From Acidobacteriota bacterium (GTDB lineage: Bacteria > Acidobacteriota > Aminicenantia > UBA2199), in the NCBI GenBank assembly GCA_025456205.1, contig JALOLA010000010.1, positions 5,338 to 69,337 on the forward strand: 64,000 nucleotides of DNA. Direction: 5' to 3'. The translations under genes and the position numbers were made by a program. The notes under the pieces were generated by a model. The model was given only the letters and a program-made list of their open reading frames with translations, had not been told where the DNA came from and ran no database searches. Positions 18,359 to 42,144 of this stretch are shown one piece after another (the stretch's first letter is position 1; every line of letters starts with the position of its first letter).

Positions 18359-19400
18359 GACCGGGCTGGGCCGCCTCGCCGACCGCTTGCGGGCCTTCCC
18401 CGCCCCGCCGGGCACCAAGATCATGGAGGTGTGCGGCAGCCACACGGTGGCCATCCGCCGCTTCGGCATCCAGCACCTGCTGCCCGCGACGGTGAAGCTC
18501 GTCTCCGGCCCCGGTTGCCCGGTCTGCGTCACTCCCGACCACTTCATCGATGAGGCCATCGCCCTGGCCCGCCAGGGAGTGACCGTCACCAGTTTCGGCG
18601 ACATGCTGCGCGTCCCCGGCAGCCGCTCCGCGCTGGAGAAGGAGCGCGCCGCCGGCTGCGACATCCGCGCCGTCTATTCGCCGCTCGATGCCCTGCGCAT
18701 CGCGGAGCAGGAGGGAAAGGAGACGGTGTTTCTCGCCGTCGGCTTCGAGACCACCGCGCCCGCCATCGCCGCCGTCGCCATCCGCGCCGGCGAAAAAGGG
18801 ATCGCCAATTTTTCGCTGCTCACCGCCCTGCGCCTGGTGCCGCCGGCGCTGAAAGCCCTCATGGCTTCCGATACGGAGCTTTCCGGCTTCCTCCTCCCCG
18901 GCCATGTCTCGGCCGTCATCGGCAGGCAGGCCTATGATTTCCTGCCGGGCCAGCGCCTGCCCGGCGTGATCGCCGGCTTCAGCGCCGAAGACATCATCTC
19001 CTCCCTGATGCTGTTGCTCGAAATGCATAATAAAGGTATATATAAGGTCATGAACAACTACCCGCGCGTGGTGCGCGACGCCGGCAACCCGACATCGCGG
19101 GCGGTGCTGGCCGAGGTCTTTACCACCGCCGACGCCGCCTGGCGCGGCCTGGGCTCCATGCCGCAGAGCGGCCTCGAGCTGCGCCCCGCCTACGCCGCCA
19201 TGGAAGCGCGCCGGCGCTTCGCCATCCGCGTGCGGCCCGGCGCCGCCCGCAAGGCGTGCCGCTGCGGCGACGTGCTGCGCGGCCTGATCGATCCCCCCGC
19301 CTGCCCGCTGTTCAACAAGGCCTGCCGCCCCGACCAGCCGCTGGGGCCCTGCATGGTTTCGTCCGAGGGCAGCTGCAGCGCCTGGGTGACCTATGGATAA
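18351..19400 (+). CDS. hypD: hydrogenase formation protein HypD
   Basis: Motifs MEVCGSHT, GPGCPVCVTP and C-terminal PACPLF. The TTG start is uncertain. Confidence 0.93.
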   Translation: MAKTGLGRLADRLRAFPAPPGTKIMEVCGSHTVAIRRFGIQHLLPATVKLVSGPGCPVCVTPDHFIDEAIALARQGVTVTSFGDMLRVPGSRSALEKERAAGCDIRAVYSPLDALRIAEQEGKETVFLAVGFETTAPAIAAVAIRAGEKGIANFSLLTALRLVPPALKALMASDTELSGFLLPGHVSAVIGRQAYDFLPGQRLPGVIAGFSAEDIISSLMLLLEMHNKGIYKVMNNYPRVVRDAGNPTSRAVLAEVFTTADAAWRGLGSMPQSGLELRPAYAAMEARRRFAIRVRPGAARKACRCGDVLRGLIDPPACPLFNKACRPDQPLGPCMVSSEGSCSAWVTYG

Positions 19401-20394
19401 GGTGCTGCTGGCTCACGGCGGCGGCGGCAGCAAGAGCGCCGAGCTGACCCGGCTCGTTTTCCAGCGCTTTTTGCGCGACCCGCTGCTGCTGGCCATGGAC
19501 GACGCCGCCGTGCTCCCCGGCGGCGGCCCCCCCGGGGGCGTGTTCACCACCGACAGCTTCGTGGTCAAGCCCCTGTTCTTCCCGGGCGGCGACATCGGCC
19601 GCCTGGCGGTCTGCGGCACGGTCAATGACATGGCGGTCATGGGCGCCGAGCCGCTCTACCTCTCCATCGGCTTCATCATCGAGGAGGGCTTCCCGGTCAC
19701 CGCGCTGGAGAAGATTCTGGCCTCCATCGCCCGCGCCTGCCGCGAAAGCGGGGCGCGTATCGTCTGCGCCGACACCAAGGTGGTGGAAAAAGGCAAGGCC
19801 GACGGCCTGTTCATCAACACCTCGGGCATCGGCCGCCCGGCCTTCAAAAAGCCGGTGTCCGCCGCGCGCGTCCGCCCCGGCGACGTGGTGCTGATCAACG
19901 GCCCCATCGGCATGCACGGCATCTCGGTCCTCACCGCCCGCGGCGAGTTCGGCCTGCGCGCCAGCATCCGCAGCGATGTCGCCCCGCTGTGGGGACTGGT
20001 CAAGACCTGCCGGGCGCTCGACATCCCCTTCATGCGCGACCCCACCCGCGGCGGGCTGGCGCAGACGCTGAACGAACTGGCGCAGGCGAAGCGCTTCGGC
20101 GTGCGCATCGAGGAGAGCGAACTGCCCATTCCGAAAAAGGTGGCCGCGGTCTGCGACCTGCTCGGCTTTGACCCGCTGCACGTGGCCAACGAGGGCAAGG
20201 TGCTGATGGTGGCCGCCCGGCGCGACGCGGACAAGGCCCTCAGGCTCCTTCGCGGCCACCCGCTGGGCAGGAGGGCGCGCGTCATCGGCGCCATCACGGC
20301 CGAGAACCCCGGGTGCGTGGTCATGGCCACGAAAGCGGGCAGCGAGCGCATCGTCATGCCGCCGGTCGGGGAGATCCTGCCCCGCATCTGCTGA
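19393..20394 (+). CDS. hypE: hydrogenase maturation protein HypE
   Basis: AIR-synthase-like fold with the invariant C-terminal PRIC. Confidence 0.96.
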   Translation: MDKVLLAHGGGGSKSAELTRLVFQRFLRDPLLLAMDDAAVLPGGGPPGGVFTTDSFVVKPLFFPGGDIGRLAVCGTVNDMAVMGAEPLYLSIGFIIEEGFPVTALEKILASIARACRESGARIVCADTKVVEKGKADGLFINTSGIGRPAFKKPVSAARVRPGDVVLINGPIGMHGISVLTARGEFGLRASIRSDVAPLWGLVKTCRALDIPFMRDPTRGGLAQTLNELAQAKRFGVRIEESELPIPKKVAAVCDLLGFDPLHVANEGKVLMVAARRDADKALRLLRGHPLGRRARVIGAITAENPGCVVMATKAGSERIVMPPVGEILPRIC

Positions 20395-20810
20395 TGCACG
20401 AGGGAGCGGTCGCCGCCGCCATCATCCAGGGCGTCATCGAGGTCCTGGAGAGGGAAAAGGTCGCCGCCGCGAAAACCGTGACCGTGCTCATCGGCCGCCT
20501 GCACCACGTGGTGCCCGACGTGCTGCAGAACCACTATCGCATCCTGAAAAAAGAATATCCGGCCCTGATTCGCTCCAAATTGGCGATCGAGATCGCGCCG
20601 ATACGCGTCACCTGCCGAGCCTGCGGCCGCGAAACCGGGATCGAGCGGCCCGAGTTCGCCTGCGCCCTGTGCGGCTCCATCGACATCGAGATCACCGGCG
20701 GCAGGGAGATGCACCTGAAAGAAGTCATCGGCACAGGGCGCACGGCAGACGGCGAGCCATCGAAGAATAAAGACAAAGTAAAAAGGCAAAAGGCAAAAGG
20801 CAAAAGTTAG
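20394..20810 (+). CDS. hypA: hydrogenase nickel insertion protein HypA
   Basis: ATGA overlap with hypE. MHEGAVAAAII... N-terminus. Zn site CRACG...CALCGS. The Lys-rich tail is encoded by the AAAAGGC repeat. Confidence 0.9.
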   Translation: MHEGAVAAAIIQGVIEVLEREKVAAAKTVTVLIGRLHHVVPDVLQNHYRILKKEYPALIRSKLAIEIAPIRVTCRACGRETGIERPEFACALCGSIDIEITGGREMHLKEVIGTGRTADGEPSKNKDKVKRQKAKGKS

Positions 20811-21927: not shown

Positions 21928-22611
21928 TCAGCATTGAAAGTTCGGCTTGTTCCTGAGGATCTCGATCCAGCTCTCCATGCCCGCTCCGCTGTGGGCCGAT
22001 ACTTCGACCACGGCGCAGGCCGGGTTCACTTTTTTAATATTCCCCCGCAAGGCAGCAAGCGAAAAATTCTTCAGGGGCAGGAAATCGGTCTTGGTGACCA
22101 GACACAGCTGCGAGACCTGGAAGGCCAGCGGGTATTTCAGCGGCTTGTCCTCGCCCTCGGTGACGCTGATCAGCAGGACGTTCATGTGGGCGCCGACGTC
22201 GAACTCGGCCGGGCAGACCAGGTTGCCGATGTTCTCGACGAACAGGTAGTCCATGCCGTTGGTCCCCAGCTCGGCTACGGCCGCCTGGATCCAGGAGGCC
22301 TCGAGGTGGCAGTCGCCGCCGAATGGGCCGGTATTGATCTGGTAGGCCTGGATGCCCAGCTTCTGCAGGCGCTCGGCGTCCAGCGTGGTCTGGATGTCGC
22401 CCTCGATGACCTTGATGCGCTTGCCCAGCCTCCTGACCGTCTCCTCGACCAGGGTGGTCTTGCCCGATCCCGGCGAACTCATCAGGTTGACGAAGAAAAT
22501 GTTTTTTTCCTTCAGTTCCCGGCGGAGGCCCGCGGCGACGGCGTCGTTGGCCTTGAGCAGCTTCTGCATGACGGTGATTTTCTTCGTATCCATGGGCGTT
22601 TTATAACCCAT
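21928..22611 (-). CDS. hypB: hydrogenase nickel incorporation GTPase HypB
   Basis: P-loop SSPGSGKTTL, EGDIQT and CHLEA motifs. Start chosen at M30 of the ORF; ATG 22593 is also possible. Confidence 0.9.
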   Translation of the reverse strand: MGYKTPMDTKKITVMQKLLKANDAVAAGLRRELKEKNIFFVNLMSSPGSGKTTLVEETVRRLGKRIKVIEGDIQTTLDAERLQKLGIQAYQINTGPFGGDCHLEASWIQAAVAELGTNGMDYLFVENIGNLVCPAEFDVGAHMNVLLISVTEGEDKPLKYPLAFQVSQLCLVTKTDFLPLKNFSLAALRGNIKKVNPACAVVEVSAHSGAGMESWIEILRNKPNFQC

Positions 22612-22691
22612 CCCCGCAGATAAAGCAAGCGCCGGGCCCGGGGCAAATCCGTTGCGCTCTCCAGGCCCGTGCCTGGCGCCGGTCGCCGCAC

Positions 22692-22719
22692 TTGACAACG
22701 TGGTTTAAATTAATATAAT
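22692..22719 (+). promoter_or_regulatory. consensus sigma70 promoter of the hydrogenase operon
   Basis: TTGACA, 16-nt spacer, TATAAT. The -10 ends 15 nt before ATG 22735, giving a very short leader. Confidence 0.6.
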
Positions 22720-22734: not shown

Positions 22735-24171
22735 ATGACAAACAACATACAAACCATCATCCTACTGACCATTTTTGTGCCCATCGTCGGTTCCTTCGCC
22801 ATCCCCATCGCCGGCCTGGTCTCCAAGCGCGCCCGATCGTTCCTGTCGGTGCTGCTCGCCCTGGCCACCACCGCCTCCTCCATGCTGCTGATCCCCTTCG
22901 CGCTCAGGGGAGGTGAGCTGGCCTTCCGCAAGACACTGGCCATGGGCCTCGACTTCATCGTTGTGGCCGATGCCCTGTCGGTCTTCATGGCCGTGGCCTC
23001 CTCCTTCATCGGCGCCCTGATCGTCATCTACTCCCTGGGCTACATAAGCCACGAGGAGAACCAGAGCGAATACTACTTCATCGTCCTGCTCTTCATCGGC
23101 GCCATGATGGGCCTGGTCTTCTCCGCCAACCTGGTCTTCATGTACCTGTTCTGGGAGATCGCCGCCATCGCCTGCTGGCGCCTGATCGGCTTCTACCGGG
23201 TGCGCGAGTACGTGCTCAAGGCCGACAAGGCTTTCCTGGTGACGTTCTTCGGCGCCGTGTTCATGCTGCTGGGCTTCATCGTCGTGTTCAACCAGACCGG
23301 CACCTTCGACCTCACCGCCATGCGCGGCACGGCCATCCCCGGCATCGCCGTGCTGCTGATCCTGCTGGGCATGTTCTCCAAGTCGGCCACCGTGCCGCTG
23401 CATACCTGGCTGCCCGACGCCGGCGTGGCACCCACCACCGTCACCGCCCTGCTGCACGCGGCGGTGCTGGTCAAGATCGGCGTCTACGCCTATGCCCGCC
23501 TCTTCAGCTATACCTTCAAACTGCCCGAGGGCTGGCAGCAGGCCATCCCCATCCTGGTCGTGTTCTCCAGCCTGGTGGCCGCTGCGGCCGCCGTCGTGGA
23601 GACCGACCTGAAGCGCATCCTGGCCTACTCCACGGTCAGCCAGATCGGCTACATCTTTCTCGGCTTCGCCGTGCTCAACCCCATGGGCGTCTCCGGCTCG
23701 CTGCTCTTCATCCTGATGCACGGGCTGGCCAAGGCCGGCCTCTTCCTCTGCGCCGGCATCGTCATCCACGCCACCCACCAGCGCGACATCCGCCAGATGG
23801 GAGGCATGATCAAGACCATGCCCTGGACGGCCGTCGCCTATATCTTCTGCGCCTTCTCGGTCATCGGCATCCCGCCCTTCGGGGGCTTCTTCTCGAAATT
23901 CATGGTCATCATGGCCACCGTGCAGTCGGGCCGCGTCTGGGTGGCCGCCGCCGCGCTCTTCGCGGCGCTTCTGACCATGTACTACCTGTTCAGGGTGTTC
24001 AGCGCCGTCTTCATGGGCGAGGCCAGGTCCGACCATAAGGAAGGGACGCGCTCCATGGTCTTCGTGGTCGTGGTGCTGGCCGTCCTCTCCCTGCTGGCCG
24101 GCCTCTTCGTCGCCTATCCCACTCAGCTGGCCAATGTCGCCAGCGGCGAAATCTTAAGGTGGATGAAATGA
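22735..24171 (+). CDS. antiporter-like subunit (NuoN/M / MrpD family)
   Basis: 14-TM proton_antipo_M pattern (…PLHTWLPDAGVAPTTVTALLHAAVLVKIG…). Length 478 aa. Confidence 0.9.
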   Translation: MTNNIQTIILLTIFVPIVGSFAIPIAGLVSKRARSFLSVLLALATTASSMLLIPFALRGGELAFRKTLAMGLDFIVVADALSVFMAVASSFIGALIVIYSLGYISHEENQSEYYFIVLLFIGAMMGLVFSANLVFMYLFWEIAAIACWRLIGFYRVREYVLKADKAFLVTFFGAVFMLLGFIVVFNQTGTFDLTAMRGTAIPGIAVLLILLGMFSKSATVPLHTWLPDAGVAPTTVTALLHAAVLVKIGVYAYARLFSYTFKLPEGWQQAIPILVVFSSLVAAAAAVVETDLKRILAYSTVSQIGYIFLGFAVLNPMGVSGSLLFILMHGLAKAGLFLCAGIVIHATHQRDIRQMGGMIKTMPWTAVAYIFCAFSVIGIPPFGGFFSKFMVIMATVQSGRVWVAAAALFAALLTMYYLFRVFSAVFMGEARSDHKEGTRSMVFVVVVLAVLSLLAGLFVAYPTQLANVASGEILRWMK

Positions 24172-26033
24172 ACCCGCAAAACCTGTTGATCCCGATCCTG
24201 CTGCCGCTGCTGCTGGCCCTCTTCTCCTTCCTGCTGCCCAGGGGCGTCAAGCGGCTGCGCGAGGTCGTCTCCGTCCTGGGGGCGGCCCTCTTCGTCTATG
24301 TCGCCGTCGCGTTCTTCGGGCAGAAGGAGACCTTCTTCACCCTGCCCTGGCTGGGCCACGGCATCAACTTCGAGCTGCGCCTATACGGGTTCAGCCAGTT
24401 CATCCTGATCGCCCTGAGCGGCTTCACTTTCCTGATCACGCTCTATTCCACGGTCAGGATGGCCGGCGACCCGCGCATCCGCGAGTATTACGGCTACCTG
24501 TTCCTGACCTCGGCCATGGCCGCCGGCGCCGTGCTGGCCAACAACCTCGTGCCGCTGGTCTTCTTCTGGGAAGGCCTGCTGATCACTTTGTACGCCCTGA
24601 TCACCATCGGCGGCAAGGCCTCGCACCGCACCGCCGTCAAGGCCTTCCTCATCGGCGGCTTCTGCGACTTCTGCATGATCCTGGGCATCGCCATCCTCTG
24701 GTCGCAGACCGGCACCCTGCGCATGTCCGACATCTCGGTCGTGCCCCAGGGGCTGACCGCGGTCAGCTTCTACCTGATGATGATCGGCGCCATCGGCAAG
24801 GCCGGCTCCATGCCGTTCCATACCTGGATCCCCGACGCCGCCGTCGACGCGCCGGTCGCGGTCATGGCCTTCATCCCGGCCGCGCTGGAAAAGCTGCTGG
24901 GCATCTACATGCTGGCGCGCATCTGCCTCGACCTCTTCCAGCTCGAGGTCAACAGCGCCCCCAGCCTGGTGCTGATGACCGTCGGCGCCCTGACCATCGT
25001 CCTGGCCGTCTTCATGGCCCTGATCCAGAAGGACCTGAAGAAGCTGCTCTCCTACCACGCCGTCTCGCAGGTCGGCTACATGATGCTGGGCATCGGCACC
25101 GCCGTGCCCATCGGCATCGCCGGCGGCATCTTCCACATGATCAACCACGCCATGTACAAGAGCGGGCTGTTCCTGGCCGCCGGCTCGGTCGAGCAGCAGG
25201 CAGGCACCACCGAGCTGAAGAAGCTCGGCGGGCTGGCCAAGGCCATGCCCCTGACCGCGCTGGGCTTCATCGTCTGCGCCGCGGCCATCTCGGGCATCTG
25301 GCCCCTGAACGGCTTCGTCTCCAAGGAGATGGTCTTCCACGGCTCCTACGAGACCGGCTACACCATCTTCACCATCGCCGCCTGGCTGGGGGCCATCCTC
25401 ACCTTCGCCTCCTTCCTCAAGGCCGGCCACTCGGTGTTCTTCGGGCCGCGCGGCCTGGAGACCGCCGCCGTGAAGGAAAGCAAGAGCCCGATCACCATCC
25501 CCATCCTGGTCCTGGCCGGCCTCTGCGTCCTGTTCGGCGTCTACAATTCGCTGCCGCTGAAGCTCTTCATCCAGCCCATCCTGGCCGGCCACGCCGCGCC
25601 GGGCGAGCACATCGACTTCACGGCGCACGCCCTGGCCGTCTTCAACCCCATCGCCCTCATCTCCATGGGCTGCCTGCTGCTCGCCTTCGGCCTGCATCTC
25701 TTCGGCTTCAAGCGCGGCGGCAACAAGGCCTACCTCGCTTCCGAGCCCATCCACCGCCTGCCCGTCCTGCACACCCTGTATGACTGGGCCGAGGCCCGCG
25801 TCTTCGACCTCTACGAGCAGGGCATCAAGTTCATCCAGAGCCTGTCCAAGTTCCTGTTCCGCTTCGTCGACCGCCCCATCGACGCCTTCTACGAGAAGGT
25901 CGTCGTCGGCGCCGGCCGGGCCTGCACCGGAGCGCTCAAGGCCGCTCACAACGGCCTGTACGCCAACTACCTGGCCTGGACCGTCGGCGGGCTGGTGATC
26001 ATCGTCTGGGCCATCGGCGCCCTGCTGCGCTAG
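24168..26033 (+). CDS. NuoL-like antiporter subunit with C-terminal lateral helix and terminal TM
   Basis: PFHTWIPDAAVDAPVAVMAFIPAALEK core. C-terminal ...FVDRPIDAFYEKVVVGAG... followed by a final TM. ATGA overlap with the upstream gene. Confidence 0.88.
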   Translation: MNPQNLLIPILLPLLLALFSFLLPRGVKRLREVVSVLGAALFVYVAVAFFGQKETFFTLPWLGHGINFELRLYGFSQFILIALSGFTFLITLYSTVRMAGDPRIREYYGYLFLTSAMAAGAVLANNLVPLVFFWEGLLITLYALITIGGKASHRTAVKAFLIGGFCDFCMILGIAILWSQTGTLRMSDISVVPQGLTAVSFYLMMIGAIGKAGSMPFHTWIPDAAVDAPVAVMAFIPAALEKLLGIYMLARICLDLFQLEVNSAPSLVLMTVGALTIVLAVFMALIQKDLKKLLSYHAVSQVGYMMLGIGTAVPIGIAGGIFHMINHAMYKSGLFLAAGSVEQQAGTTELKKLGGLAKAMPLTALGFIVCAAAISGIWPLNGFVSKEMVFHGSYETGYTIFTIAAWLGAILTFASFLKAGHSVFFGPRGLETAAVKESKSPITIPILVLAGLCVLFGVYNSLPLKLFIQPILAGHAAPGEHIDFTAHALAVFNPIALISMGCLLLAFGLHLFGFKRGGNKAYLASEPIHRLPVLHTLYDWAEARVFDLYEQGIKFIQSLSKFLFRFVDRPIDAFYEKVVVGAGRACTGALKAAHNGLYANYLAWTVGGLVIIVWAIGALLR

Positions 26034-26042
26034 GGAGGAGCC

Positions 26043-27524
26043 ATGTTATTCCTATTCATCATCGTCCCGCTGTTGCTGGCCGGTCTGCTGCCCCTGCTGG
26101 GCAAGCTCTCGAAGCGCTTCCTGCCCGACCTGCTGGCCAGCGCCGCCATGCTCTTCCTGCTCGTGCTCTCGGTCGTCAGCGCCAAGCCGCTGATCGCCGG
26201 CGGCGGCATCATCCAGCAGGCCTTCTGGTTCGGCGCGCCGCTGAACATCCGCCTGCTGCTCGACGGCTTCAGCCTGTTCATGCTCTTCACCATCTCGCTG
26301 GTCAGCTTCGCCGTCACCCTGTACTCGATCAATTACATGGACCACTACGGGGCCAAGGCCAATTACTATGCCCTGCTGCTGGTGATGATCGCCGGCATGA
26401 ACGGCCTGGTCCTGAGCAGCGACCTGTTCAACATCTACATTTTCCTGGAAATGGCCGCCATCGCCTCCTACGCCCTGGTCGCCTTCGGCCGCGGCCATGA
26501 GGAGCTCGAGGCATCGTTCAAATACCTGATGCTCTCCGCCGTCGCCTCGGCCTTCATCCTGTTGAGCATCGCCGTCATTTTCGGCATGACCGGCGGCGTC
26601 AGCTTCGGCACCGTCGCCCAGGGCCTCAAGACCCTGAACGTCAAGTACGTGGTCGGCGTCTGCAGCGGCCTCTTCCTGGCCGGCTTCGGCCTGAAGGCGG
26701 CCCTGGTGCCGTTCCACTCCTGGCTGCCCGACGCCCACCCCTCGGCGCCGGCGCCGATCTCGGCCATGCTGTCGGCCGTGCTGATCAAGGTTTCCGGCGT
26801 CTACGCCATGACGCGCATCTTCCTGAACGTCTTCGGCCTTACGCCGGCGCTGACCACGGTGCTGACCGTCATGGGCGTCGTCTCGATCTTCGTCGGCGCC
26901 CTGGCAGCCCTGGGCCAGAACGACATCAAGCGCATGCTGGCCTACTCCTCGATCAGCCAGATCGGCTACGTGGTGCTCGGCCTGGGCATCGGCACCCCCC
27001 TGGGCATCATCGGCGGCCTTTTCCACCTGTTCAACCACGCCCTGTTCAAGTCGCTGCTCTTCTTGAACGCCGGGGCCGTCGAGCAGTCGACCGGCACGCG
27101 CGCGCTGGACAAGATGGGCGGCCTGGCCAAGGTCATGCCGCTGACGGCGACCACTTCGGCCGTCGCCTCGCTCTCCATCGCCGGCGTGCCGCCGCTGAAC
27201 GGCTTCTGGAGCAAGCTGCTGATCATCATCGCCCTGGTGCAGGCCAAGATGCACGTCCTGGCCGTGCTGGCCGTGCTGGGCAGCGTGATCACCTTGTGGT
27301 ACTACCTGGTGCTGCAGCGCTATGCCTTCTTCGGCAAGCTGAACGAGGCGTGGCAGGGGGTCAGGGAAGCCCCGTTCTGGATGTCGGCCTCGATGGTCCT
27401 GCTGGCCCTGCTCTGCGTCGTCACCGGCCTGGTCTTTCCCTTCGCGATCCACTCGTGGCTGCAGCCCGCCGCCGACGTCCTGGGCCAGGGCATCGGCGTG
27501 GCCCTGAACTTCATCGGATTTTAG
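26043..27524 (+). CDS. antiporter-like subunit (NuoM / MrpD family)
   Basis: PFHSWLPDAHPSAPAPISAMLSAVLIKV core. RBS gggagga. Length 493 aa. Confidence 0.9.
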   Translation: MLFLFIIVPLLLAGLLPLLGKLSKRFLPDLLASAAMLFLLVLSVVSAKPLIAGGGIIQQAFWFGAPLNIRLLLDGFSLFMLFTISLVSFAVTLYSINYMDHYGAKANYYALLLVMIAGMNGLVLSSDLFNIYIFLEMAAIASYALVAFGRGHEELEASFKYLMLSAVASAFILLSIAVIFGMTGGVSFGTVAQGLKTLNVKYVVGVCSGLFLAGFGLKAALVPFHSWLPDAHPSAPAPISAMLSAVLIKVSGVYAMTRIFLNVFGLTPALTTVLTVMGVVSIFVGALAALGQNDIKRMLAYSSISQIGYVVLGLGIGTPLGIIGGLFHLFNHALFKSLLFLNAGAVEQSTGTRALDKMGGLAKVMPLTATTSAVASLSIAGVPPLNGFWSKLLIIIALVQAKMHVLAVLAVLGSVITLWYYLVLQRYAFFGKLNEAWQGVREAPFWMSASMVLLALLCVVTGLVFPFAIHSWLQPAADVLGQGIGVALNFIGF

Positions 27525-27533: not shown

Positions 27534-28019
27534 ATGCATCTTTTTCTATTGATCGGATTGGTCGCCTTTTCCATCATGGCCGTCCTGAGTCGCGACCTGC
27601 TGAAGAGCGCCATCAGCCTGGCCGTGGCCAGCATTTTCCTGGCCCTGGTCTTTTTTCACCTGGGCGCCGTCTATGCCGGGGTGTTCGAGCTCTCGGTGGT
27701 CGCCGGCCTGATCACCGTCCTCTTCATCACCGCCATCGCCCTGACGCGCAACGACGGCGAGGTGGCGGAAAGCAAGCGCCACCGGATCGTCTTCCCGCTC
27801 TTCTTCCTGGCCCTGGCCGTGCTCGACATCCTGGTGATGAGGAAGCTGCTGGGCCAGATCCCCGCCATCCAGGGCGCCGGGAGCGGCACGTTCAGCCAGG
27901 TGCTGTGGAACCAGCGCACCTTCGACCTGGTCGGGCAGGTCGGGGCCATCTTCGCCGGCGTGCTGGCCGTGCTGGCCCTGTTCCGCCACGACAGCCCCAA
28001 GGGGGATAGCCATGAATAA
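27534..28019 (+). CDS. NuoJ-like membrane subunit
   Basis: LGAVYAGVFELSVVAGLITVLFITAIAL parallels NuoJ LGAyFaGalEiiVYaGAImVLFvF. The C-terminal TM is retained. Confidence 0.7.
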   Translation: MHLFLLIGLVAFSIMAVLSRDLLKSAISLAVASIFLALVFFHLGAVYAGVFELSVVAGLITVLFITAIALTRNDGEVAESKRHRIVFPLFFLALAVLDILVMRKLLGQIPAIQGAGSGTFSQVLWNQRTFDLVGQVGAIFAGVLAVLALFRHDSPKGDSHE

Positions 28020-28320
28020 CCTGTGGATACTGAACATGGGCTTCGTCGCCCTGCTCATCGGCATCGGCCTCTACTGCCTGCTGGCCATGAAGAACACGGT
28101 CAAGCTGCTGATCGGCGTCGAGATCATCGCCAAGGGCGTCACCCTGGCCCTGGTGGCCAGCGGCTACGCCCGCGACAACCTGATGCTCGCCCAGGCCATG
28201 GTCATCACCGTCATCGTCATCGATGTCGCCGTCATCGCCACGGCGCTGGCCCTGATCATCAGCATCAACCGCCATACCAAGAGCCTTGACGTCAGCAAAC
28301 TGACCCAATTGAAGGGATAA
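28012..28320 (+). CDS. NuoK / MrpC-like membrane subunit
   Basis: 102 aa with 3 TMs. GIGLYCLLAMKNTVKLLIGVEIIAKGVTL contains the conserved Glu in TM2. Confidence 0.85.
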   Translation: MNNLWILNMGFVALLIGIGLYCLLAMKNTVKLLIGVEIIAKGVTLALVASGYARDNLMLAQAMVITVIVIDVAVIATALALIISINRHTKSLDVSKLTQLKG

Positions 28321-28322: not shown

Positions 28323-28658
28323 ATGAAAAACATTATGGAGATCTTCCTCTCGCCGCCGCTGGCCTTTCTGGTCTTCCTGGCCATTTTCTACATCATCTAT
28401 TTCCTGGCCGGGCGCCTGGCCCCCAAGCTCAACCCCGTCGGCGGCAAGCTGAAAAGCTACGCCTGCGGCGAGGACATTCCGGGCAGCAAGCTGCAGTTCG
28501 GCTACCGCCTGTTCTTCTTCATCGCCCTGTTCTTCACCATGATGCACGTGGCGGCGCTGGTGGTAGCGACCTTGCCGTCTGGCCCCATCGCCTATTTCGG
28601 ACTGTTTTACCTGGGCATGATCTTCCTGTCCGTTGCCGCCCTGGTCACGAGGGATTAA
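28323..28658 (+). CDS. NuoA-like membrane subunit
   Basis: KSYACGEDIPG...FFFIALFFTMMHVAAL parallels NuoA YECG...FYLVAMFFVIFDVEAL. Length 111 aa. Confidence 0.65.
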   Translation: MKNIMEIFLSPPLAFLVFLAIFYIIYFLAGRLAPKLNPVGGKLKSYACGEDIPGSKLQFGYRLFFFIALFFTMMHVAALVVATLPSGPIAYFGLFYLGMIFLSVAALVTRD

Positions 28659-28659
28659 C

Positions 28660-29085
28660 ATGATCGAACGTCTGGTCCATTGGTCACGGGTCAAGTCCCC
28701 TTGGGTCCTGCATCTGAACGCCGGCGGCGGCTGCAACGGCTGCGACATCGAGATCCTGGCCGCGCTCATGCCGCGCTTCGACCTGGAACGCTTCGGCGTG
28801 CAGCTGAAAGGGACGCCGCGCCACGCCGACGTCATGATCTGCACCGGGGCCGTCACCCTGCAGAACCGCGACCGCGTCCTGCGCGTCTACGAGCAGGTCC
28901 CCGACCCGAAGTTCGTGGTGGCGGCCGGCGCCTGCGCCATGGCCGGCTGCGTCTACCGCGGCTCCTATCACACCCTGATCGGCATCGACCAGCTGCTGCC
29001 GGTCAACGCCTACGTTCCCGGCTGTCCCTTCCGCCCCGCCGCCCTGATCGATGCGGTGGTCAAGCTGCTCAATTCGGTGAAATGA
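28660..29085 (+). CDS. group 4 [NiFe]-hydrogenase small subunit (NuoB-like)
   Basis: Four cluster Cys: GGGCNGCDIE, AAGACAMAGC, VPGCPFRP. Confidence 0.92.
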   Translation: MIERLVHWSRVKSPWVLHLNAGGGCNGCDIEILAALMPRFDLERFGVQLKGTPRHADVMICTGAVTLQNRDRVLRVYEQVPDPKFVVAAGACAMAGCVYRGSYHTLIGIDQLLPVNAYVPGCPFRPAALIDAVVKLLNSVK

Positions 29086-29086: not shown

Positions 29087-29563
29087 GTGATCATGAACAA
29101 CGAAGCGATCTTGGAAAAGATAAACGCCGGGCTCAAGGACAAGGTCCTGGAGGCGGCCGCGGCAGCGCCGCGGCGCATCAACCTCAAGGTGGACCGCCAG
29201 CACCTGCTGGGCGTCCTGGCCTACCTCAAGGAGCAGTTCAACATGGCCCACCTGGCCACGATCAGCGGCGTCGACCTGGGCGAGTCCTTCGAGGTGATCT
29301 ATCACCTGTCCAATGACGCCGTCACGGTGAACGTGCGCATGTTGACGCCGCGCCAGGAACCCAGGATCCCCAGCGTCTGCTCCCTGATCCCCGGGGCGAT
29401 CCTCTACGAGCGCGAACTGCAGGACATGTTCGGCATGGTGGTGGAGAACATCCCCGACCCGCGGCGCCTGCTCCTGTGCGATGATTGGCCCGAGGGGCAA
29501 TATCCCCTGCGCAAGGATTGGAAGTTCGAACGCCCCGCCGAGATCATCCCCGGAGGTAAATAA
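29087..29563 (+). CDS. NuoC-like (30 kDa) hydrogenase subunit
   Basis: ...HLATISGVDLGESFEVIYHL...ERELQDMFGMV... is the NuoC/HycE-N pattern. Confidence 0.88.
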   Translation: MIMNNEAILEKINAGLKDKVLEAAAAAPRRINLKVDRQHLLGVLAYLKEQFNMAHLATISGVDLGESFEVIYHLSNDAVTVNVRMLTPRQEPRIPSVCSLIPGAILYERELQDMFGMVVENIPDPRRLLLCDDWPEGQYPLRKDWKFERPAEIIPGGK

Positions 29564-30683
29564 TGGAATACAAGGTTTCCCTGGGACCGCAGCACCCCGC
29601 CCTCCACGAGGCCGTCAGCCTGCGCATGACCCTCGAGGGCGAGGTCATCCGCGACGCCGACCTGAAGCTCGGCTACAGCCATCGCGGCATCGAGAAACTG
29701 GCCGAGGAAAGGAGCTTCATCCAGAACATCTACCTCACCGAGCGCATCTGCGGCATCTGCTCCCACTCCCATACCACCTGCTTCACCCAGGGGGTCGAGC
29801 AGCTGATGGAGCTTGTTCCCGCCCGGCGCGGCCTCTTTATCCGCACCCTGATCGCCGAGCTGGAGCGCGTGCACAGCCACCTGCTGTGGCTGGGCGTCGC
29901 CGGCCAGGAGGCGGGCTTCGAGTCGTTCTTCATGTACACCTGGCGCGACCGCGAGGTCGTCCTGGATATACTGGAATGGATCTCGGGCAACCGCGTGCAC
30001 TACGCCATGAACATCTTCGGCGGCGTGCGCCGCGACATCGACGAGCTGCAGAAGAAGAAGATCCTCGACTCCCTCGACCTGCTGAGGAAGCGCACCGATT
30101 ATTATCTCAACCTCGCCGCCAGCGAGCCGACCTTCATCGGCCGCCTGGCCGGCGTCGGCAAGCTGAGCAAGGAGCAGGCCATCGCCCTCTGCGCCGTCGG
30201 CCCCACCCTGCGCGCCTCGGGCGTGCCCATGGACGTGCGCAAGGACGACCCCTACGCCTCCAAAGCTACAACATGATCGAATACCTGCTCACGAACCTGC
30301 CCGAGGGGCCCTTCAAGGTCAAGGCCCCGCGCAAGGTCAAGCCCAACGAGGTCTATTCGCGCTACGAGGCCCCGCGCGGCGAGAACGTCCACTACATCAA
30401 GAGCAACGGCTCGGACAAGCCCGAGCGCCTGAAGGTCCGCGCCCCCACGCTGGCCAACTACCCGGCTACCGTCGCGATGCTCAAGAACGGCTTCATCGCC
30501 GACATCCCGCTGATCTTCGCCGCCATCGATCCCTGCATCTGCTGCGCCGAGCGCCTGGTGCAGCTGGACGACGCGCGCAGCGGTCGGAGCAACGTCCTGT
30601 CCTTCAGCCAGCTGCGGGCCATGGCGAACGCGCATTACAAGAAAGTCGATCTTACAAAAAAGGAAGCAGCATGGCCATTTTAA
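29563..30683 (+). pseudogene. group 4 [NiFe]-hydrogenase large subunit (NuoD-like), interrupted by an out-of-frame internal deletion near 30259
   Basis: The N-part (frame of 29563) carries RICGICSHSH and stops at 30274-30276. The C-part (frame of ORF 29481..30683) carries EAPRGE...DPCICCAER. About 28 residues between the PY..Y and LPxGP motifs are missing. Confidence 0.8.
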
Positions 30684-31639
30684 AGCCCATCCTCTACATT
30701 CTTGTCTACCCGGGTCTGATCTTCCTGATGGTCTATTCCACCTTTTGCGAGTGGTTCGACCGCAAGCTCTACGCCCGCATGCAGAACCGCATCGGCCCCC
30801 TGCACACCGGGCGCTCCGGCATCCTGCAGCCGGTGGCCGACATCATCAAGCTCTTCGCCAAGGAGGACATCGTTCCGGAAAAAGCCGACAAGCACATGTT
30901 CACCGCCCTGCCGGTATTCGCCCTGGCCATCATCTGCACGGCGGCGCTCTACCTGCCCGTCTGGCACTACAGCGAGGCTCCCTCGTTCATCTCCTTCCCC
31001 GGCGACCTGATCGTCGTGGCCTACCTGCTGACCCTGCCGACGCTGATCTTCTTCCTGGCCGGCTGGCACTCCACCAACTATTTCTCGGCCATCGGCGGCG
31101 TGCGCGTCCTGACCATGCTCTTCGGCTACGAGATCCCGCTGCTGCTGGCCCTGCTCAGCCCGGCCGTGCTGGCCGGCTCCTGGCGCATCCTGGAGATCGC
31201 CGTCTTTTTTCAGAACCGGCCGCTGCTGATGCTGGTCAACATCATCGGCTTCTTCATCGCCCTGATCGCCCTGCAGGCCAAGCTGGAGCGCGTGCCCTTC
31301 GACATCCCCCACGCCGAGACCGAGATCGTCGGCGGTCAATTTACCGAGTACTCGGGCAAGAAGTTGGCCTTCTTCCGCCTGCTCGGCGACATCGAGATGG
31401 TCGTCGGCGCCGGCCTGATCGCTGCCGTCTTCCTGGGCGGCTTCCCGGGCGGCCTGCTGCCCGGGCTGGCCTGGTTCATCGTCAAGACCCTCTTCATCGT
31501 CTTCCTGCTGGCCGCCATGCGCGCCGCCACCAGCCGCATCCGCATCGACCAGATGATCAGCTTTTCCTGGCGCTGGCTGGCGCCCCTCGGCGTGTTGCAG
31601 CTGTTCATCGTCATCATCATCAAGGGGAATATGCCATGA
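30671..31639 (+). CDS. NuoH-like membrane subunit
   Basis: KLYARMQNRIGPLHTGRSGILQPVADIIKLFAKED is the NuoH/HycD signature. Confidence 0.92.
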   Translation: MAILKPILYILVYPGLIFLMVYSTFCEWFDRKLYARMQNRIGPLHTGRSGILQPVADIIKLFAKEDIVPEKADKHMFTALPVFALAIICTAALYLPVWHYSEAPSFISFPGDLIVVAYLLTLPTLIFFLAGWHSTNYFSAIGGVRVLTMLFGYEIPLLLALLSPAVLAGSWRILEIAVFFQNRPLLMLVNIIGFFIALIALQAKLERVPFDIPHAETEIVGGQFTEYSGKKLAFFRLLGDIEMVVGAGLIAAVFLGGFPGGLLPGLAWFIVKTLFIVFLLAAMRAATSRIRIDQMISFSWRWLAPLGVLQLFIVIIIKGNMP

Positions 31640-31995
31640 GCCTCAAATTCGCCCCGTTCCTGCCCGAGCTGCTGCGCAGCCTGTTCAAGAAGCCGGTCAC
31701 GGTCGTCTATCCTTTCCAGAAGGAGGCTGTGGCCGCGGGCTTCCGCGGTACCGTCGTCTTCGACCCCGCCAAGTGCATCGGCTGCAACATCTGCGTCAAT
31801 GACTGCCCGGCCGAGGCCATCGACATCATCCGCGTGTCCGAGACCGAGAAGAAGTTCAAGATGATCCTGCATAACGACCGCTGCATCCACTGCGCCCAGT
31901 GCGTCGACTCCTGCCCCACCAAGACCTACCACATGGACCTGGAATACGAGGTTGCCGCCTTCAGCCGTCACAACCTGAAGATCGAGTACAAGTAA
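31636..31995 (+). CDS. NuoI-like 2x[4Fe-4S] ferredoxin subunit
   Basis: CIGCNICVNDCP and CIHCAQCVDSCP. ATGA-type overlap with the NuoH-like gene. Only the last 119 codons of ORF 30745..31995 are coding. Confidence 0.9.
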   Translation: MSLKFAPFLPELLRSLFKKPVTVVYPFQKEAVAAGFRGTVVFDPAKCIGCNICVNDCPAEAIDIIRVSETEKKFKMILHNDRCIHCAQCVDSCPTKTYHMDLEYEVAAFSRHNLKIEYK

Positions 31996-32087
31996 GACCG
32001 CCCATCGCCGCCAAAAAACCCGCCGCTCACAGACCCGCCGCCGGGCCGGGAGCGGCGTTTCCCTGCCGCGCGGATTTCCGGGAAGCG

Positions 32088-32585
32088 TTGCGTGAGCAGC
32101 TTCGCGGCTCCCAACGCGTCTTCGTCCTGGGCATCGGCATGGACTGGAAGAGCGACGACCGCCTGGGACCGGCCCTGGCGCGGGCCCTGGCGCAGGCGCT
32201 GCCGGCCGAGCCGCGCCTGAGCGTCGTCAGCGGCGGCGAGGCCCCGGAAAACTTCACCGGCGCCATCCGCGCCTTCGCGCCCAGCCATGTCATTCTGCTC
32301 GACGCCGTGGACCACGGCCGGCCTCCCGGCACGGCCTTCCTGGTCGACGAAGGCGCCATCACCATGGGCGACATGACCAGCCACCGCCTGCCCCTGAAGC
32401 TACTGATGCGCTTCCTGGCCGCGAGCATCCCCTGCCGGGTCATCCTGGTCGGCGTGCAGCCGCGGACGCTGCTGCCGGGCCGGCGGCTTTCCTCTCCCGT
32501 GCGCAGGACCGTCGCGCCCCTGGCCGCGTTCTTAGCCGAGGAGATCACCTTCGCTTTGGCGGGACTCCAGGACGATGCAAAGTGA
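32088..32585 (+). CDS. hydrogenase maturation endopeptidase (HycI/HyaD family)
   Basis: VFVLGIGMDWKSDDRLG parallels GxGNxxxxDDGxG, followed by ILLDAVDHG. The TTG 32088 start is a guess; no ATG is available. Confidence 0.75.
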   Translation: MREQLRGSQRVFVLGIGMDWKSDDRLGPALARALAQALPAEPRLSVVSGGEAPENFTGAIRAFAPSHVILLDAVDHGRPPGTAFLVDEGAITMGDMTSHRLPLKLLMRFLAASIPCRVILVGVQPRTLLPGRRLSSPVRRTVAPLAAFLAEEITFALAGLQDDAK

Positions 32586-35987: not shown

Positions 35988-36013
35988 AGTTTATCCAGAT
36001 CCGTCATAATAAA

Positions 36014-36973
36014 ATGAAAATGAAAAATTCATCTATTCCCGCGGTTACCCTGGCTCCCCGCCTGGGGCTGAAAGCCCACTGGCTGGGAGGCGTCGTCCTC
36101 CTGATGCTGGCGCTGGCCGGCTGCTCGGCCAAAGGCAGGACCGTGCGCAACGTCCCCGCCGATGACCGGCAGTTCCTTTCCGAGGTCCGCTACATCATCA
36201 CTAAAAAGGAAAGCCGGATCTTCAAGAAGACGCCGCCCGAGGAGCGCCAGCAGTTCATCGAGGAATTCTGGAAGGTGCGCGACCCGGACCCCACCACCGA
36301 GGAGAACGAGTACCGCGACGAATACTATCGCCGCATCGACCTGGCCAACCGCCTGTTCCAGGAAGGAAGCCAGGGCTGGCTGAGCGACCGCGGCCGCATC
36401 CTGATCCTGCTGGGCGAGCCGGAGCGCCGCGACGTCTACCCCACCGGCTACAGCTTCTACGAGCCGCCGGTAGAGATCTGGTTCTACGGCACGTTCCCCA
36501 TCGTGTTCGTCGACACCCACCGCGAAGGCATGTACCGGCTCGATCCCGGCAGCGCCCGCCGCATCAGCATGATCAACACCGCCCAGATGCAGCTGAAGCC
36601 GCAGGGCATCGACCGCAACGTGCGCATGTTCGATTTCACGCTGGCCGTCCAGGCCGCCGGACCGGGCCAGGCCACGCTGCTCATCGCCGTGCCCTACCGC
36701 GTGACCAACCTGGTCCTGAACGAGGCCACCAAGGCCTACGAGACACAGCTCAGGCTGAAGGTGCGCATCAGCGATGATGCGGGCGCGGCGGTGATGGAGA
36801 AAGAGGAGCTGCGCCCGGTGGCCGTTTCGGAGGATATGCTGAAACTGCTGGGCAAGAATATCGCCATCGAGTTCCCCGTGCAATTGCCTGTGGGCAGGTA
36901 CACCGCCCTGGTGACGCTGGAGAACACCGCCGACAGGGCCCAGTCCCGCAAAGAGATCAAGATCAGACTGTGA
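36014..36973 (+). CDS. GWxTD domain lipoprotein
   Basis: Lipobox LALAGC. FWKVRDPDPTT...YYRRIDLANRLF...GWLSDRGRILILLGEP. Confidence 0.85.
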   Translation: MKMKNSSIPAVTLAPRLGLKAHWLGGVVLLMLALAGCSAKGRTVRNVPADDRQFLSEVRYIITKKESRIFKKTPPEERQQFIEEFWKVRDPDPTTEENEYRDEYYRRIDLANRLFQEGSQGWLSDRGRILILLGEPERRDVYPTGYSFYEPPVEIWFYGTFPIVFVDTHREGMYRLDPGSARRISMINTAQMQLKPQGIDRNVRMFDFTLAVQAAGPGQATLLIAVPYRVTNLVLNEATKAYETQLRLKVRISDDAGAAVMEKEELRPVAVSEDMLKLLGKNIAIEFPVQLPVGRYTALVTLENTADRAQSRKEIKIRL

Positions 36974-36992
36974 TCTGAAGGAGAAAATAGAA

Positions 36993-38030
36993 ATGAACGC
37001 AAAGAAATTGTTTGTCCTGGCACTGATCATCCTGCTCACGCTCGCCCTGCCGCTGGCCGCCGCGAAAGGCAAGGCCGCCCCGCAGAAGAGCGGGCAGTCG
37101 GTGCAGATCGCTCCCCAGGTGGCGGCGGTGATGGACGCCAACGTGGCGCTGCGCACGAACCGCAGCGACATCCCCCTCACCTACCTGCGCACGCTCTTCC
37201 TCACCACCCAGCAGAACCTGAACTACCCGGTGTTCATGTTCCAGCTCAAGAATGCCGACCTGGGCTTCGCCGCCCCGGCCGAGACCCCCGATATGCTCAA
37301 GGCCAGCAACTACGCCTTCATCCGCGTCTATCGCCTGGAGAACGGCGCGGCCGGCGAGATCGTCCGCCAGCACTTCATCCGCTTCGACCTGGAAGAGAAG
37401 CTGCCGGGCTTCCAGCCCGAGGCCGTGAACTACTATTCCATCGCCGGCGACACCTACCCGGCCGGCACCTACCTGCTGGCCCTGGCGCTGTGCACCACCG
37501 ATTTCAGCAAGATCACCACCCACTTCGTTGAATTCTCGCTGCCCGATTTTTCGCAGCTCAAGGACCAGCTGGCCACCACGCCCATCTTTTCCGTGAGCTC
37601 GCTGCAGATGCTGCCGGCGGCCGAGACCAAGCTGTCCGTCCACAAGAACTCCTTCGTCTACAACACCCTGCTGCTGGCCCCGGTGGTCAGCAACGAATTC
37701 AAGCCCAGCGAGAACCTCGACCTCTTCTATTTCATCCTCGGCGCCAAGCCCGACACGGCCACCAACGCCCTCAGCCTGCAGATCACCTATGTCTTCAAGA
37801 AAGACGGCAAGGAGGTCAACAAGCTGCCCACCCAGACCGTCAACAGCTACATCATCAGCCAGCCCATCGACTTCACCTTCACCGAGGTGACCAAGAACGC
37901 CAAGGGCGTGGAGACGGAGCGCAAGCAGAAATTGCTGGAAGCCGGGGACTATGTCCTGGAGATCCAGCTGCTGGACACCGTGTCCAAGGCCAAGAGCCTG
38001 CAGGAATTCAAGTTCAAGATCGTTCAGTAA
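36993..38030 (+). CDS. hypothetical secreted protein (resembles the post-GWxTD beta-rich region of the 43157-45214 protein)
   Basis: RBS ggaga. Signal peptide MNAKKLFVLALIILLTLALPLAAA. No named family recognised. Confidence 0.6.
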   Translation: MNAKKLFVLALIILLTLALPLAAAKGKAAPQKSGQSVQIAPQVAAVMDANVALRTNRSDIPLTYLRTLFLTTQQNLNYPVFMFQLKNADLGFAAPAETPDMLKASNYAFIRVYRLENGAAGEIVRQHFIRFDLEEKLPGFQPEAVNYYSIAGDTYPAGTYLLALALCTTDFSKITTHFVEFSLPDFSQLKDQLATTPIFSVSSLQMLPAAETKLSVHKNSFVYNTLLLAPVVSNEFKPSENLDLFYFILGAKPDTATNALSLQITYVFKKDGKEVNKLPTQTVNSYIISQPIDFTFTEVTKNAKGVETERKQKLLEAGDYVLEIQLLDTVSKAKSLQEFKFKIVQ

Positions 38031-38044
38031 TCCCGGTTTTCAAC

Positions 38045-38071
38045 GTGCCGCCCCCTGCCCGGGGGCGGCAC
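38045..38071 (+). terminator. GC hairpin after the 36993-38030 gene
   Basis: Stem gtgccgccccc / gggggcggcac. No strong U-tract. Confidence 0.35.
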
Positions 38072-38158
38072 GATCATCTTCTCCCCCCCTTTTTCCTTTC
38101 TCATCCCTGATCTTTCCCGGCGGTCCGGCCGGTCGGTTTCAATGCAATTCTGATTTTT

Positions 38159-38187
38159 GAATTATTATTCAATTATTTGAATAATTC
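38159..38187. promoter_or_regulatory. AT-rich nested palindrome upstream of the sigma54 promoter
   Basis: gaattattattcaattatttgaataattc, containing ATTCAA-n4-TTGAAT, within GC-rich DNA. Confidence 0.35.
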
Positions 38188-38317
38188 CCCGTTGCGGCGA
38201 GAATTCGCTTTGATCTTAACGATATCTTCGCTTGCAATGCCCGCGGAAAACCTTTCCTGGTCATGATTTTTCCGGTTACCCCGGCACTGGCCTCATGCGG
38301 TCCCCCGCGCCATGACT

Positions 38318-38333
38318 TGGCACGGATATTGCT
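38318..38333 (+). promoter_or_regulatory. sigma54 (-24/-12) promoter of TonB-dependent receptor paralog 1
   Basis: TGGCACGgataTTGCT matches TGGCACG-N4-TTGCW. ATG 38372 lies 39 nt downstream. Confidence 0.62.
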
Positions 38334-38371
38334 TATTTTTTGTTGTATTGTCTAAAAAGGAGGACAAACAA

Positions 38372-41300
38372 ATGAAATCTGCCAGAAGCTTCACCCTGCT
38401 GGCGATCGGCTTGCTCCTGTGCGCAGGACTGCTGACCGCCCAGCAAACCAGTGCCAAGATCTTTGGCACCGTGCAGCTTGAAGACGGATCATTGGTCCCC
38501 GGCGTCACCGTCGAGGCCACCAGCCCCAAGCTGGTCGGCAAATCGACCGCCATCACCGATGAGAACGGCGTCTTCAGACTCGCCAACCTCACCCCCGGCT
38601 CCTACAAGCTGGTATTCACCCTGCAGGGTTTCCAGACCGTTGTCAGGGACGGCATCCAGCTGGCGGTCGAACAGACCCTCAACCTGAAGATCACCATGAA
38701 ACTCGGCAACATCGAGGAAATGGTGACCATCACCGGCCAGGTCGCCCAGATCGACGTCAAGAGCACGGCGAAGGGCATGACCCTGACCAAAGAGGTCTTC
38801 CAGACCCTGCCCAGAGGCCGCAACTTCGACTCGCTGGTGACCGCCGTCCCCGGCGTTTCCAGTGAGACCCTGCTGCTCGGCGGCACGTCGGTCGACGGCG
38901 CCTCCGGCCTGGAAAACATGTACTACATCGACGGCACCGACACCACCAGCATCATCCAGGGCGACTCCGGCCAGAGCGTGTCCTTCGACTTCGTCGACGA
39001 AGTCCAGGTCAAGGCCTCCGGCTACTCCGCCGAATTCGGCGGCTCGCTGGGCGGCGTCATCAACGTCGTCACCCGCTCGGGCGGCAACGAGTTCCACGGC
39101 GAGGTCGTCGGCTATTACAGCGGCGCCCCCCTGCGCAGCGAGTACCGCGACATCCTGGACCTCGACCCCAATGACGACTCCAAGGCCGTCTACCTGCCGT
39201 ACTCCTTCTTCTACGGCGACCAGGACGACCACCGCTTCGAAGGCGGCCTGAACCTCGGCGGCTACATCCTCAAGGACAAGCTGTGGTTCTTCGGCTCCAT
39301 CCTGCCCGTCTACTACACCAACACCCGCACCCTGACCCACTCCTCCGGCGACGTGCGCGACTGGGAACGCACCGAGAACCAGCTGAACTACCAGCTCAAG
39401 CTCACCGCGCAGCCCATGAAGAACCTGCGCCTGGGCGCCAGCGTGGTCAACAACTTCTACAAGTACAAAGGGCAGCTGGCCAACTACGCTCAGGGTGCGA
39501 ATCCGACGGTTTCTTATGATGATTACGGATTCAGCTATCCCAACATGTCGGGCAACTTCACCGCCGACCTGACCGTGGGCAACAACTTCATGTTCAGCGC
39601 CCGCGCCGGCTTCTTCCGCACCGACACCACCAACCAGCTCGTGCAGCCCAGCGACGAGCCCTGCTTCCAGTTCCTGACCGAAGCCCCCGGCGGCTATTTC
39701 AAGACCACCAACATCGGCCTGCTCGATGTGCCCGCCGCCTACCAGCGTCCTTCGGGCTATCAGAACTACTCGCGCGCCAACGTCATGGTCATGAAGAACA
39801 ACATCGCCGAGAAGCTGAGCTTCGGCGCCGACCTCTCCTACTTCGTGAACCTGGGCGGCGAACACTCCTGGAAAGCCGGCTTCAGCTGGGCCCGCAGGGG
39901 CCAGAACGTGGACAACACCGGCAAAGGCCCGGTGCTGTTCTTCGGCTGGAACCGCGACTTCATCGCCTACGGCGTTAACTACGGCCGCGGCAAGTACGGC
40001 TACTACGGCGTGCGCAACAACGCCATCACCGGCCCCTACGGCGACTTCTACAACGCCTACGGCAACATGCTCGCCTTCTACCTGCAGGATTCCTGGACCA
40101 TCGCCAACCGCTTCACCGTGAACTTTGGCGTGCGCGCCGAATCCGAGTACATCCCCTCTTACGCCACCGGCAACCCCGAGTTCGAAGCCCTGAAACCCAT
40201 CGAGTTCAGCCTGGGCGACAAGCTGGCCCCGCGCCTGGGCTTCGTCTGGGACGTCAAGGGCGACTCCTCCCTGAAGGTGTTCGGCTCCTACGGCCTCTTC
40301 TTCGACGTCATGAAGCTCGAGATGGCCGCCGGTTCCTACGGCGGTTTCAAGTGGAAGAGCACCTATTATTCCCTGGATACCTTTGAATGGGACAAGATCG
40401 GCGTCAACGGCAACTTCCCCGGCCGCCAGCTGCTGCCCGGCGGTACCTTCGATTTCCGCGCCCCCTCCTTCGACACCACCGATCCCGACATGAAACCCAT
40501 GTCCCAGCAGGAGATCTCGCTGGGTCTCGAAAAGAGACTGCGTGACGACCTGGCCCTCTCCGTGCGCTATGTCAACAAGAGCCTGCGCAACGCCATTGAA
40601 GACATCGGCGTGCTGCTGCCGGATGGCGAACATTATTACACCGCCAACCCGGGCGGCCCGTTCGTCATTAAGAAGTACAATGAAGCCAAGGCCGCCGGCC
40701 TGATCCCGCAGAACGCCCCGGCCCCGTCCAAAGCCTATCGCGACTACAACGCCGTCAACATCTCCCTCGACAAGCGCTTCTCCAACAACTGGCTGGGCGG
40801 CGTTTCCTACACCTGGAGCCAGCTGAAAGGCAACTACAGCGGCCTGGCCTCCGGTGACGAAGTCGGCCGCACCGACCCGAACGTCGCGCGCTACTTTGAC
40901 TCCTGGTACGTTTCCCTCGACCGGAACCTGAAGGATTCCGTGGGCGTGCTCCCCGGCGACCGCACCCACTACCTGAAGGCCTACGGTTCCTACTCCTTCC
41001 CCTTCGGCGTCACCGCCGGCATGGTCTTCAACGCCTTCAGCGGCACCCCCACCTCCACCGAATGGGCCATGGACTACCAGGGCTACCTGCCTTTCGGCCG
41101 TGGCGACAAGGATCGCGCCCCCTTCCTGTGGTTCGCCAACTTCTACGTTGAATACAACCTCAAGCTCGGCAAGAACAACCTGAACATCAACCTGAACGTG
41201 GACAACATCTTCAACGTGAAGACCGCCCAGCGCATCTACTCGATCTACAACCAGGGCGCCGTGGCCATCTCCGAAGACCGCATCGCGCAGGGTTCCTGGG

Positions 41301-41401: not shown

Positions 41402-41430
41402 ACGTCAGCTAATTAGTTAGCCGACTTTTG

Positions 41431-41463
41431 CCCCGCCCCCTTCGGGGGGCGGGGTTTTTTTTT
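41431..41463 (+). terminator. Rho-independent terminator
   Basis: Stem ccccgccccc, loop ttcg, stem gggggcgggg, followed by T9. Confidence 0.85.
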
Positions 41464-41480
41464 GTTAACAAGAACTCCTC

Positions 41481-41609: not shown

Positions 41610-41610
41610 C

Positions 41611-41976: not shown

Positions 41977-42001
41977 TCGGTGATTATTGCATTTCGACCA
42001 T

Positions 42002-42055: not shown

Positions 42056-42144
42056 AACCTGAATTTTTCCCGTATTACTTTAAATAAATAAAAAGCCGGC
42101 TGCGCGGGCAGCCGGCATGAGATGCAAACAGGCAGGAAAGGGTT

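Follow-up and report, generated by a model that had tools for sequence, protein, structure and literature searches.

An 85-nt gap in the [NiFe]-hydrogenase large-subunit gene of an Aminicenantia MAG is most likely an assembly artefact

Does the bacterium behind the metagenome-assembled genome (MAG) GCA_025456205.1 lack a working hydrogenase, or does the deposited contig lack part of a hydrogenase gene? We examined a window of 64,000 nucleotides of contig JALOLA010000010.1 (Acidobacteriota; Aminicenantia), in which the catalytic large subunit of a [NiFe]-hydrogenase is spread over two reading frames. An earlier note, made from the letters of the window, had reported an out-of-frame loss of about 28 codons (83–85 nt) in this gene. 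DNA alignment confirms the loss, which amounts to exactly 85 nt. We attribute the gap to an assembly or consensus artefact of the MAG rather than to biology, with a probability of roughly 80%.

The main value of the gap is as a quality flag for MAG annotation. The MAG is the species representative in a genome collection, and annotators would call its only NuoD/large-subunit gene a pseudogene; that call would lead to the conclusion that the organism has no working energy-converting hydrogenase. A true deletion would amount to one more recent gene inactivation in a subpopulation, ordinary in kind and of modest ecological interest.

Anatomy of the gene and of the gap

The frame that opens with the ATG at 29563 (ORF 29563..30276, plus strand) encodes a product of 237 aa that ends ...DDPYASKATT* (...GVPMDVRKDDPYASKATT*). 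Homology resumes at 30258/30259 in the frame of ORF 29481..30683, which reads ...LQSYNMIEYLLTNLPEGPF...EAPRGENVHY...DPCICCAER and stops at 30681–83. In a DNA alignment of the window with 10 same-genus loci the gap measures exactly 85 nt and falls exactly between 30258 and 30259. BLAST against the relative G024 agrees, with 92 subject bases facing 7 query bases between the two high-scoring segments. The 85 nt amount to 28 codons plus one nucleotide and affect 29 residues (VYDEIPFEV.TADSCDVLGRAVVRVKELI), so their absence explains both the affected residues and the change of frame.

The two pieces fall on either side of a hole in the fold. In the NuoD-type profile PF00346 the first piece occupies positions 3–117 and the second positions 197–271, leaving 118–196 unmatched; the first piece also matches the N-terminus of PF00374. 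Against Escherichia coli HycE (7z0s_E), piece 1 aligns up to residue 422 and piece 2 from residue 456, which leaves about 30 residues of the fold unaccounted for. The 3' part, which is colinear with the relatives, aligns to HycE 456–569 and to MbhL 303–380. As deposited, therefore, the NuoD-like fold (PF00346) is covered by two frames rather than by a single continuous polypeptide.

Both nickel-binding motifs are present, one in each frame. The N-terminal motif RICGICSHSH (29743–29772, Cys codons at 29749 and 29758) has the form RxCGxCxxxH and aligns with the CGIC of Pyrococcus furiosus MbhL (6cfw_L) and of HycE. The C-terminal motif DPCICCAER has the form DPCxxCxxR and aligns with DPCLSCTDR in MbhL and DPCYSCTDR in HycE. 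Coordinates of the gene, its motifs and its neighbours are collected in Table 1.

Table 1. Positions in the window of the large-subunit gene, the gap and the surrounding hydrogenase and maturation genes.
Feature	Position	Strand	Basis or remark
hypF	15843-18137	+	Pfam
hypC	about 18137-18355	+	translation MCLAVPMKIIEIKG...
hypD	18351-19400	+	Pfam
hypE	19393-20394	+	Pfam
hypA	20313-20810	+	Pfam
hypB	21928-22698	-	Pfam
Three NuoL/M/N- or MrpA/D-like antiporter subunits	22735-24171, 24159-26033, 26043-27524	+	NCBIfam NuoL, HyfD, MrpD (below equivalog cut-offs)
MbhD/NuoJ-like small membrane subunit	27534-28019	+	family match
NuoK/MnhC-like small membrane subunit	28012-28320	+	family match
111-aa hydrophobic ORF	28323-28658	+	no Pfam or NCBIfam match
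NuoB-like small subunit	28633-29085	+	PF01058; NuoB family
NuoC-like subunit	29087-29563	+	PF00329
Large-subunit gene, 5' part	29563..30258	+	codons 1-232, ending ...DDPYA; PF00346 3-117 and PF00374 N-terminus
N-terminal Ni-binding CxxC	29749..29760	+	Cys63/Cys66 in RICGICSHSH; sequence
Junction without the 85 nt	30258..30259	+	alignment; X1 137-nt contig; X5 contigs; no border microhomology
Large-subunit gene, 3' part	30259..30683	+	opens with the final two letters of an Ile codon; next QSYNMIEYLL..., up to the stop
Premature TGA in the shifted frame	30274..30276	+	overlaps ATG 30273-75
C-terminal Ni-binding motif DPCICCAER	30528..30554	+	second frame; followed by a 42-residue C-terminal extension
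NuoH-like membrane subunit	30671-31639	+	PF00146
NuoI-like 2x[4Fe-4S] subunit	31636-31995	+	NuoI and HycF-like families
HycI-type maturation endopeptidase ORF	31899..32585	+	TIGR00142 hycI 2.3e-28; TIGR00072 above cut-off; family match begins near 32120, true start uncertain

The hydrogenase and its operon

From what is known of these families, the gene encodes the catalytic large subunit of a membrane-bound, complex-I-like group 4 (Mbh/Hyc-type) [NiFe]-hydrogenase. Its expected partners surround it: NuoB-, NuoC-, NuoH- and NuoI-like subunits together with antiporter-like subunits. The full maturation set is also at hand, with hypF, hypC, hypD, hypE, hypA and hypB just upstream of the operon and a HycI-type endopeptidase gene in addition. 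If it works as Mbh and Hyc do, the complex would oxidise a low-potential electron donor, probably ferredoxin, and couple this to proton reduction and ion translocation.

The best match among solved structures is MbhL (6CFW chain L), with an E value of 5.9e-80 over residues 4–359 of an intact relative and of 4.8e-56 for the window's piece 1. MbhL and the window's gene have the CGIC and DPCxxC nickel ligands in common, and where they are aligned MbhL and the Aminicenantes protein share about 40% of residues as read by eye. The Mbh operon likewise combines Mrp-type antiporter-like subunits with NuoB/C/H/I-like partners, whereas the bacterial Aminicenantes system has three NuoL/M/N-like subunits. 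Unlike MbhL, the Aminicenantes protein carries a 42-residue C-terminal extension, and its operon has a hycI protease gene downstream. In E. coli, the C-terminal extension of HycE is processed by HycI, and a HycI homolog lies downstream here. HycE (7Z0S chain E) aligns over the whole core, with its residues 423–455 opposite the 29 that the window lacks. HycE differs in its N-terminal NuoC-like fusion (581 aa in all); here the NuoC-like protein is encoded by a separate gene.

The split large subunit is the only PF00346 locus that we found in the MAG (86.9% complete); a canonical complex I NuoD in addition to it did not turn up at this level of completeness. A literature search on group 4 hydrogenases of Aminicenantes returned nothing bearing on this locus.

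The earlier note had also held that the other operon genes and hypA–F are intact, and this stands. In BLAST comparisons with the contigs of two relatives the 85-nt gap is the sole frame-breaking difference in the 9-kb operon, the remaining length differences (3, 6, 30 and 42 nt) all being in frame. At 27988–28008 the window has 42 nt fewer than the relative G024 and 30 nt fewer than the relative G002, both in frame; these differences fall in the 3' terminal part of the MbhD/NuoJ-like gene, whose product varies in length at its C-terminus. The 111-aa hydrophobic ORF, lying between the NuoK-like and NuoB-like genes, occupies a NuoA-like position.

A wetland metatranscriptome (run X18) contains a 151-nt contig that matches 30272–30390 with one mismatch. 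This points to transcription, in such a habitat, of the 3' part of the gene or of a near relative's.

Intact copies in relatives and in independent sequencing runs

Genomes for comparison were Candidatus Aminicenantes MAGs of the same genus. About 45 relatives were examined, and each encodes the large subunit as one uninterrupted protein of about 400 aa. Sixteen same-genus loci match piece 1 over residues 1–232 (in one case 1–234) at 85–97% identity, and all 16 matches sit in open frames of 401–402 aa. The translated same-genus loci are single proteins of 400–401 aa that read ...DDPYAVYDEIPFEVCTADSCDVLGRAVVRVKELIQSYNMIEF... through the region, and the 5' part in the window is 87–97% identical to their residues 1–232. 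A wider scan that covered one genome per species gave 48 loci, mostly from Candidatus Aminicenantes MAGs, nearly all of which match residues 1–401 of an intact query in one piece. One of the homologs, in MAG MFD04408.bin.2.25 (CAVXAL010000002.1, 1501–2704), matches over 1204 nt, which is not a multiple of three; its best-segment identity is lower (83%), and that MAG's copy may contain a frameshift.

These relatives bear directly on two ways in which the window could be read as a natural gene. Piece 1 stops in an ATGA (30273–76) whose ATG could open piece 2, and each piece keeps one Ni-binding motif, as would be seen if the large subunit were naturally made as two translationally coupled polypeptides without the 29-residue segment. 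Relatives up to 97% identical nonetheless all have a single ORF with the segment, and the missing segment holds a CDV..R..VR..E block whose conservation reaches HycE and MbhL. The ATG at 30273–75 is simply the codon of the conserved internal Met of ...SYNMIE..., which in the alignment of intact relatives is either ATG or ATC (Ile). We therefore regard the overlap of stop and start as coincidental and not as evidence of translational coupling. With an intact form of the same strain also present in run X1 (see below), a natural split is effectively refuted, and the possibility raised in the earlier note that homologs are naturally divided into two polypeptides is false. Bridging of the frame change in vivo by programmed frameshifting or other recoding is just as improbable: nothing speaks for it beyond the existence of two overlapping frames, a frameshift could not supply 29 missing conserved residues, and the relatives do without any shift.

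We examined public sequencing runs as independently built Logan contigs, which drop rare variants. The locus is best represented in run X1, a metagenome from a wetland: 0.83 of its sampled words occur there, and for window 36001–46000 the share is 0.96. From 22 to 34 kb the window is tiled by mismatch-free X1 contigs at 8.5–12x. This tiling and the 0.96 of words show that the window's strain is present in X1, which is probably the source sample of the MAG or a sister of it. Four single-base differences between X1 and the window occur in 12 kb (at 25104, 25106, 27590 and 30584, where the only X1 contigs of at least 99% identity differ from the window), so the identification of X1 as the source stays tentative. 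The MAG consensus thus departs slightly from the dominant path in X1, as strain mixing or a sister sample would lead one to expect.

At the junction, X1 holds the intact sequence. A 225-nt contig (11.6x, zero mismatches) covers 30045–30258 and extends 11 nt beyond 30258 into the intact sequence, reading GTCTACGACGA. A second contig, of 137 nt (8.76x), spans the whole gap: its letters 1–19 equal 30240–30258 and its letters 105–137 equal 30259–30291, with zero mismatches. With both flanks exact, 85 extra letters lie exactly at the junction. The contig's depth roughly equals the strain's total in X1, and it carries the CAA-AGC codons specific to the window. On the intact relative L004 the contig is colinear and gap-free, letters 1–128 corresponding to L004 2178–2305 with 14 substitutions. 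The 85 nt were rebuilt from the table of substitutions against L004 rather than read directly off the contig; the rebuilt letters reproduce both window flanks exactly. Inserting them at 30258|30259 yields a single ORF of 401 aa whose product has 95% identity to the L004 protein, so that with the X1 sequence included a continuous polypeptide spans the NuoD-like fold.

Other runs agree with X1. In X2, X3 and X4 loose contig ends at 30258 and at 30259 read intact sequence. In X5 no letters of the window are skipped at 30258|30259 and 85 letters lie between; in X6, 93 letters lie between 30258 and 30267. The earlier note had named about 84 additional nucleotides restoring one frame as the observation that would overturn a deletion, and these were found, as 85 letters between exact X1 flanks, in contigs rather than raw reads. 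Its statement that the subunit carries a deletion, taken as a property of the organism, is consequently not supported, since contigs from X1–X6 show intact forms. The evidence says that the population carries an intact large-subunit gene.

Assembly error or deletion allele

To account for the loss from the deposited contig, the earlier note had offered recent inactivation, a population variant and assembly collapse as options; the evidence favours the last and leaves the other two less likely. The most probable reading is that the gap is not a real feature but an error of this MAG at 30258|30259, and that in the organism the gene is most likely intact as one ORF of 401 aa. Metagenome assemblies go wrong at conserved, strain-mixed loci, and this locus has both properties. 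At least three variants co-occur in X1 and X3, where the locus is fragmented into unitigs of 31–260 nt; coexistence of so many variants at a conserved locus accounts for a graph chopped into such short pieces. In a graph broken in this way by several coexisting close strains, the deposited contig would have skipped 85 nt. The MAG's own reads would then also carry the 85 nt, the skip having presumably arisen during assembly, scaffolding or polishing. The case resembles the indel and frameshift errors of short-read MAGs at strain-heterogeneous conserved loci in that the MAG is likewise divided (124 contigs), the locus fragmented and the defect unique to the assembly. It differs from a simple graph collapse, which would not predict a gap of 85 nt whose borders share no k-mer.

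The main alternative is that an 85-nt deletion really occurs in the population, as a minority or sample-specific allele that reflects a recent loss of hydrogenase function and that the assembler followed. The deposited contig does contain the deletion, and its borders offer no help to an assembly error: no microhomology or direct repeats were found there (0 nt shared, no shared k-mer), so the gap cannot be put down to a simple de Bruijn-graph collapse. Contig-level data cannot show that a rare variant is absent, and in X1 the left-flank contig stands at 11.6x against 8.76x for the intact one, which leaves room for a few reads elsewhere. Against this, that 11.6x contig itself enters the intact sequence by 11 nt, and assemblers normally take the majority path. 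Elsewhere in the operon, in hycI and in hypABCDEF the genes are intact, with no other frame-breaking difference. Had the gene been lost throughout the source population, no intact allele of the same strain would be expected; the 137-nt contig of X1 is such an allele.

Searches for the window's own form of the junction gave nothing in favour of a deletion allele. No contig spans the junction in that form in any of eight runs (X1–X6, X11 and X18), and no indexed run holds the sampled 31-mers of the junction, a weak test because the 60-nt query (30229–30288) contains only 2 sampled words. An exact look-up in a gene-position collection returned no other record of the truncated 237-aa product, which is likewise weak evidence. 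Thus, no disrupted allele appeared in these data independent of the assembly. Two exact-pattern scans of JGI metagenome contigs gave 0 matches for the strain-specific right flank and for the border of the intact allele, a result that weighs for neither reading. Searched for the 85 nt, which might have ended up on a small separate contig, the rest of the MAG gave chance matches only. Overall, a rare real variant is less likely than a MAG artefact, and we consider it unlikely. The corresponding biological picture, of a hydrogenase-negative minority genotype in a wetland Aminicenantes population, captured by the assembler while its maturation and membrane genes were still intact, is equally doubtful.

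Two local features of the sequence were considered and set aside. Imperfect repeats near the junction (GTGCGC..AAGGA; CCTAC / TAC codons) would, as a cause of the gap, have produced a loss of 90–95 nt rather than 85. Beside the junction, at 30261–30266, the codons of the window are CAA AGC (Gln-Ser), against codons of the CAG/TCC/TCG type (e.g. CAG TCC) in the ten same-genus loci of the alignment; AGC versus TCC or TCG is a switch of serine codon family that needs at least two substitutions. This AGC codon is not an assembly scar: the CAA-AGC variant occurs in the intact X1 contigs and was also seen in contigs of X2–X4, and is therefore a real polymorphism.
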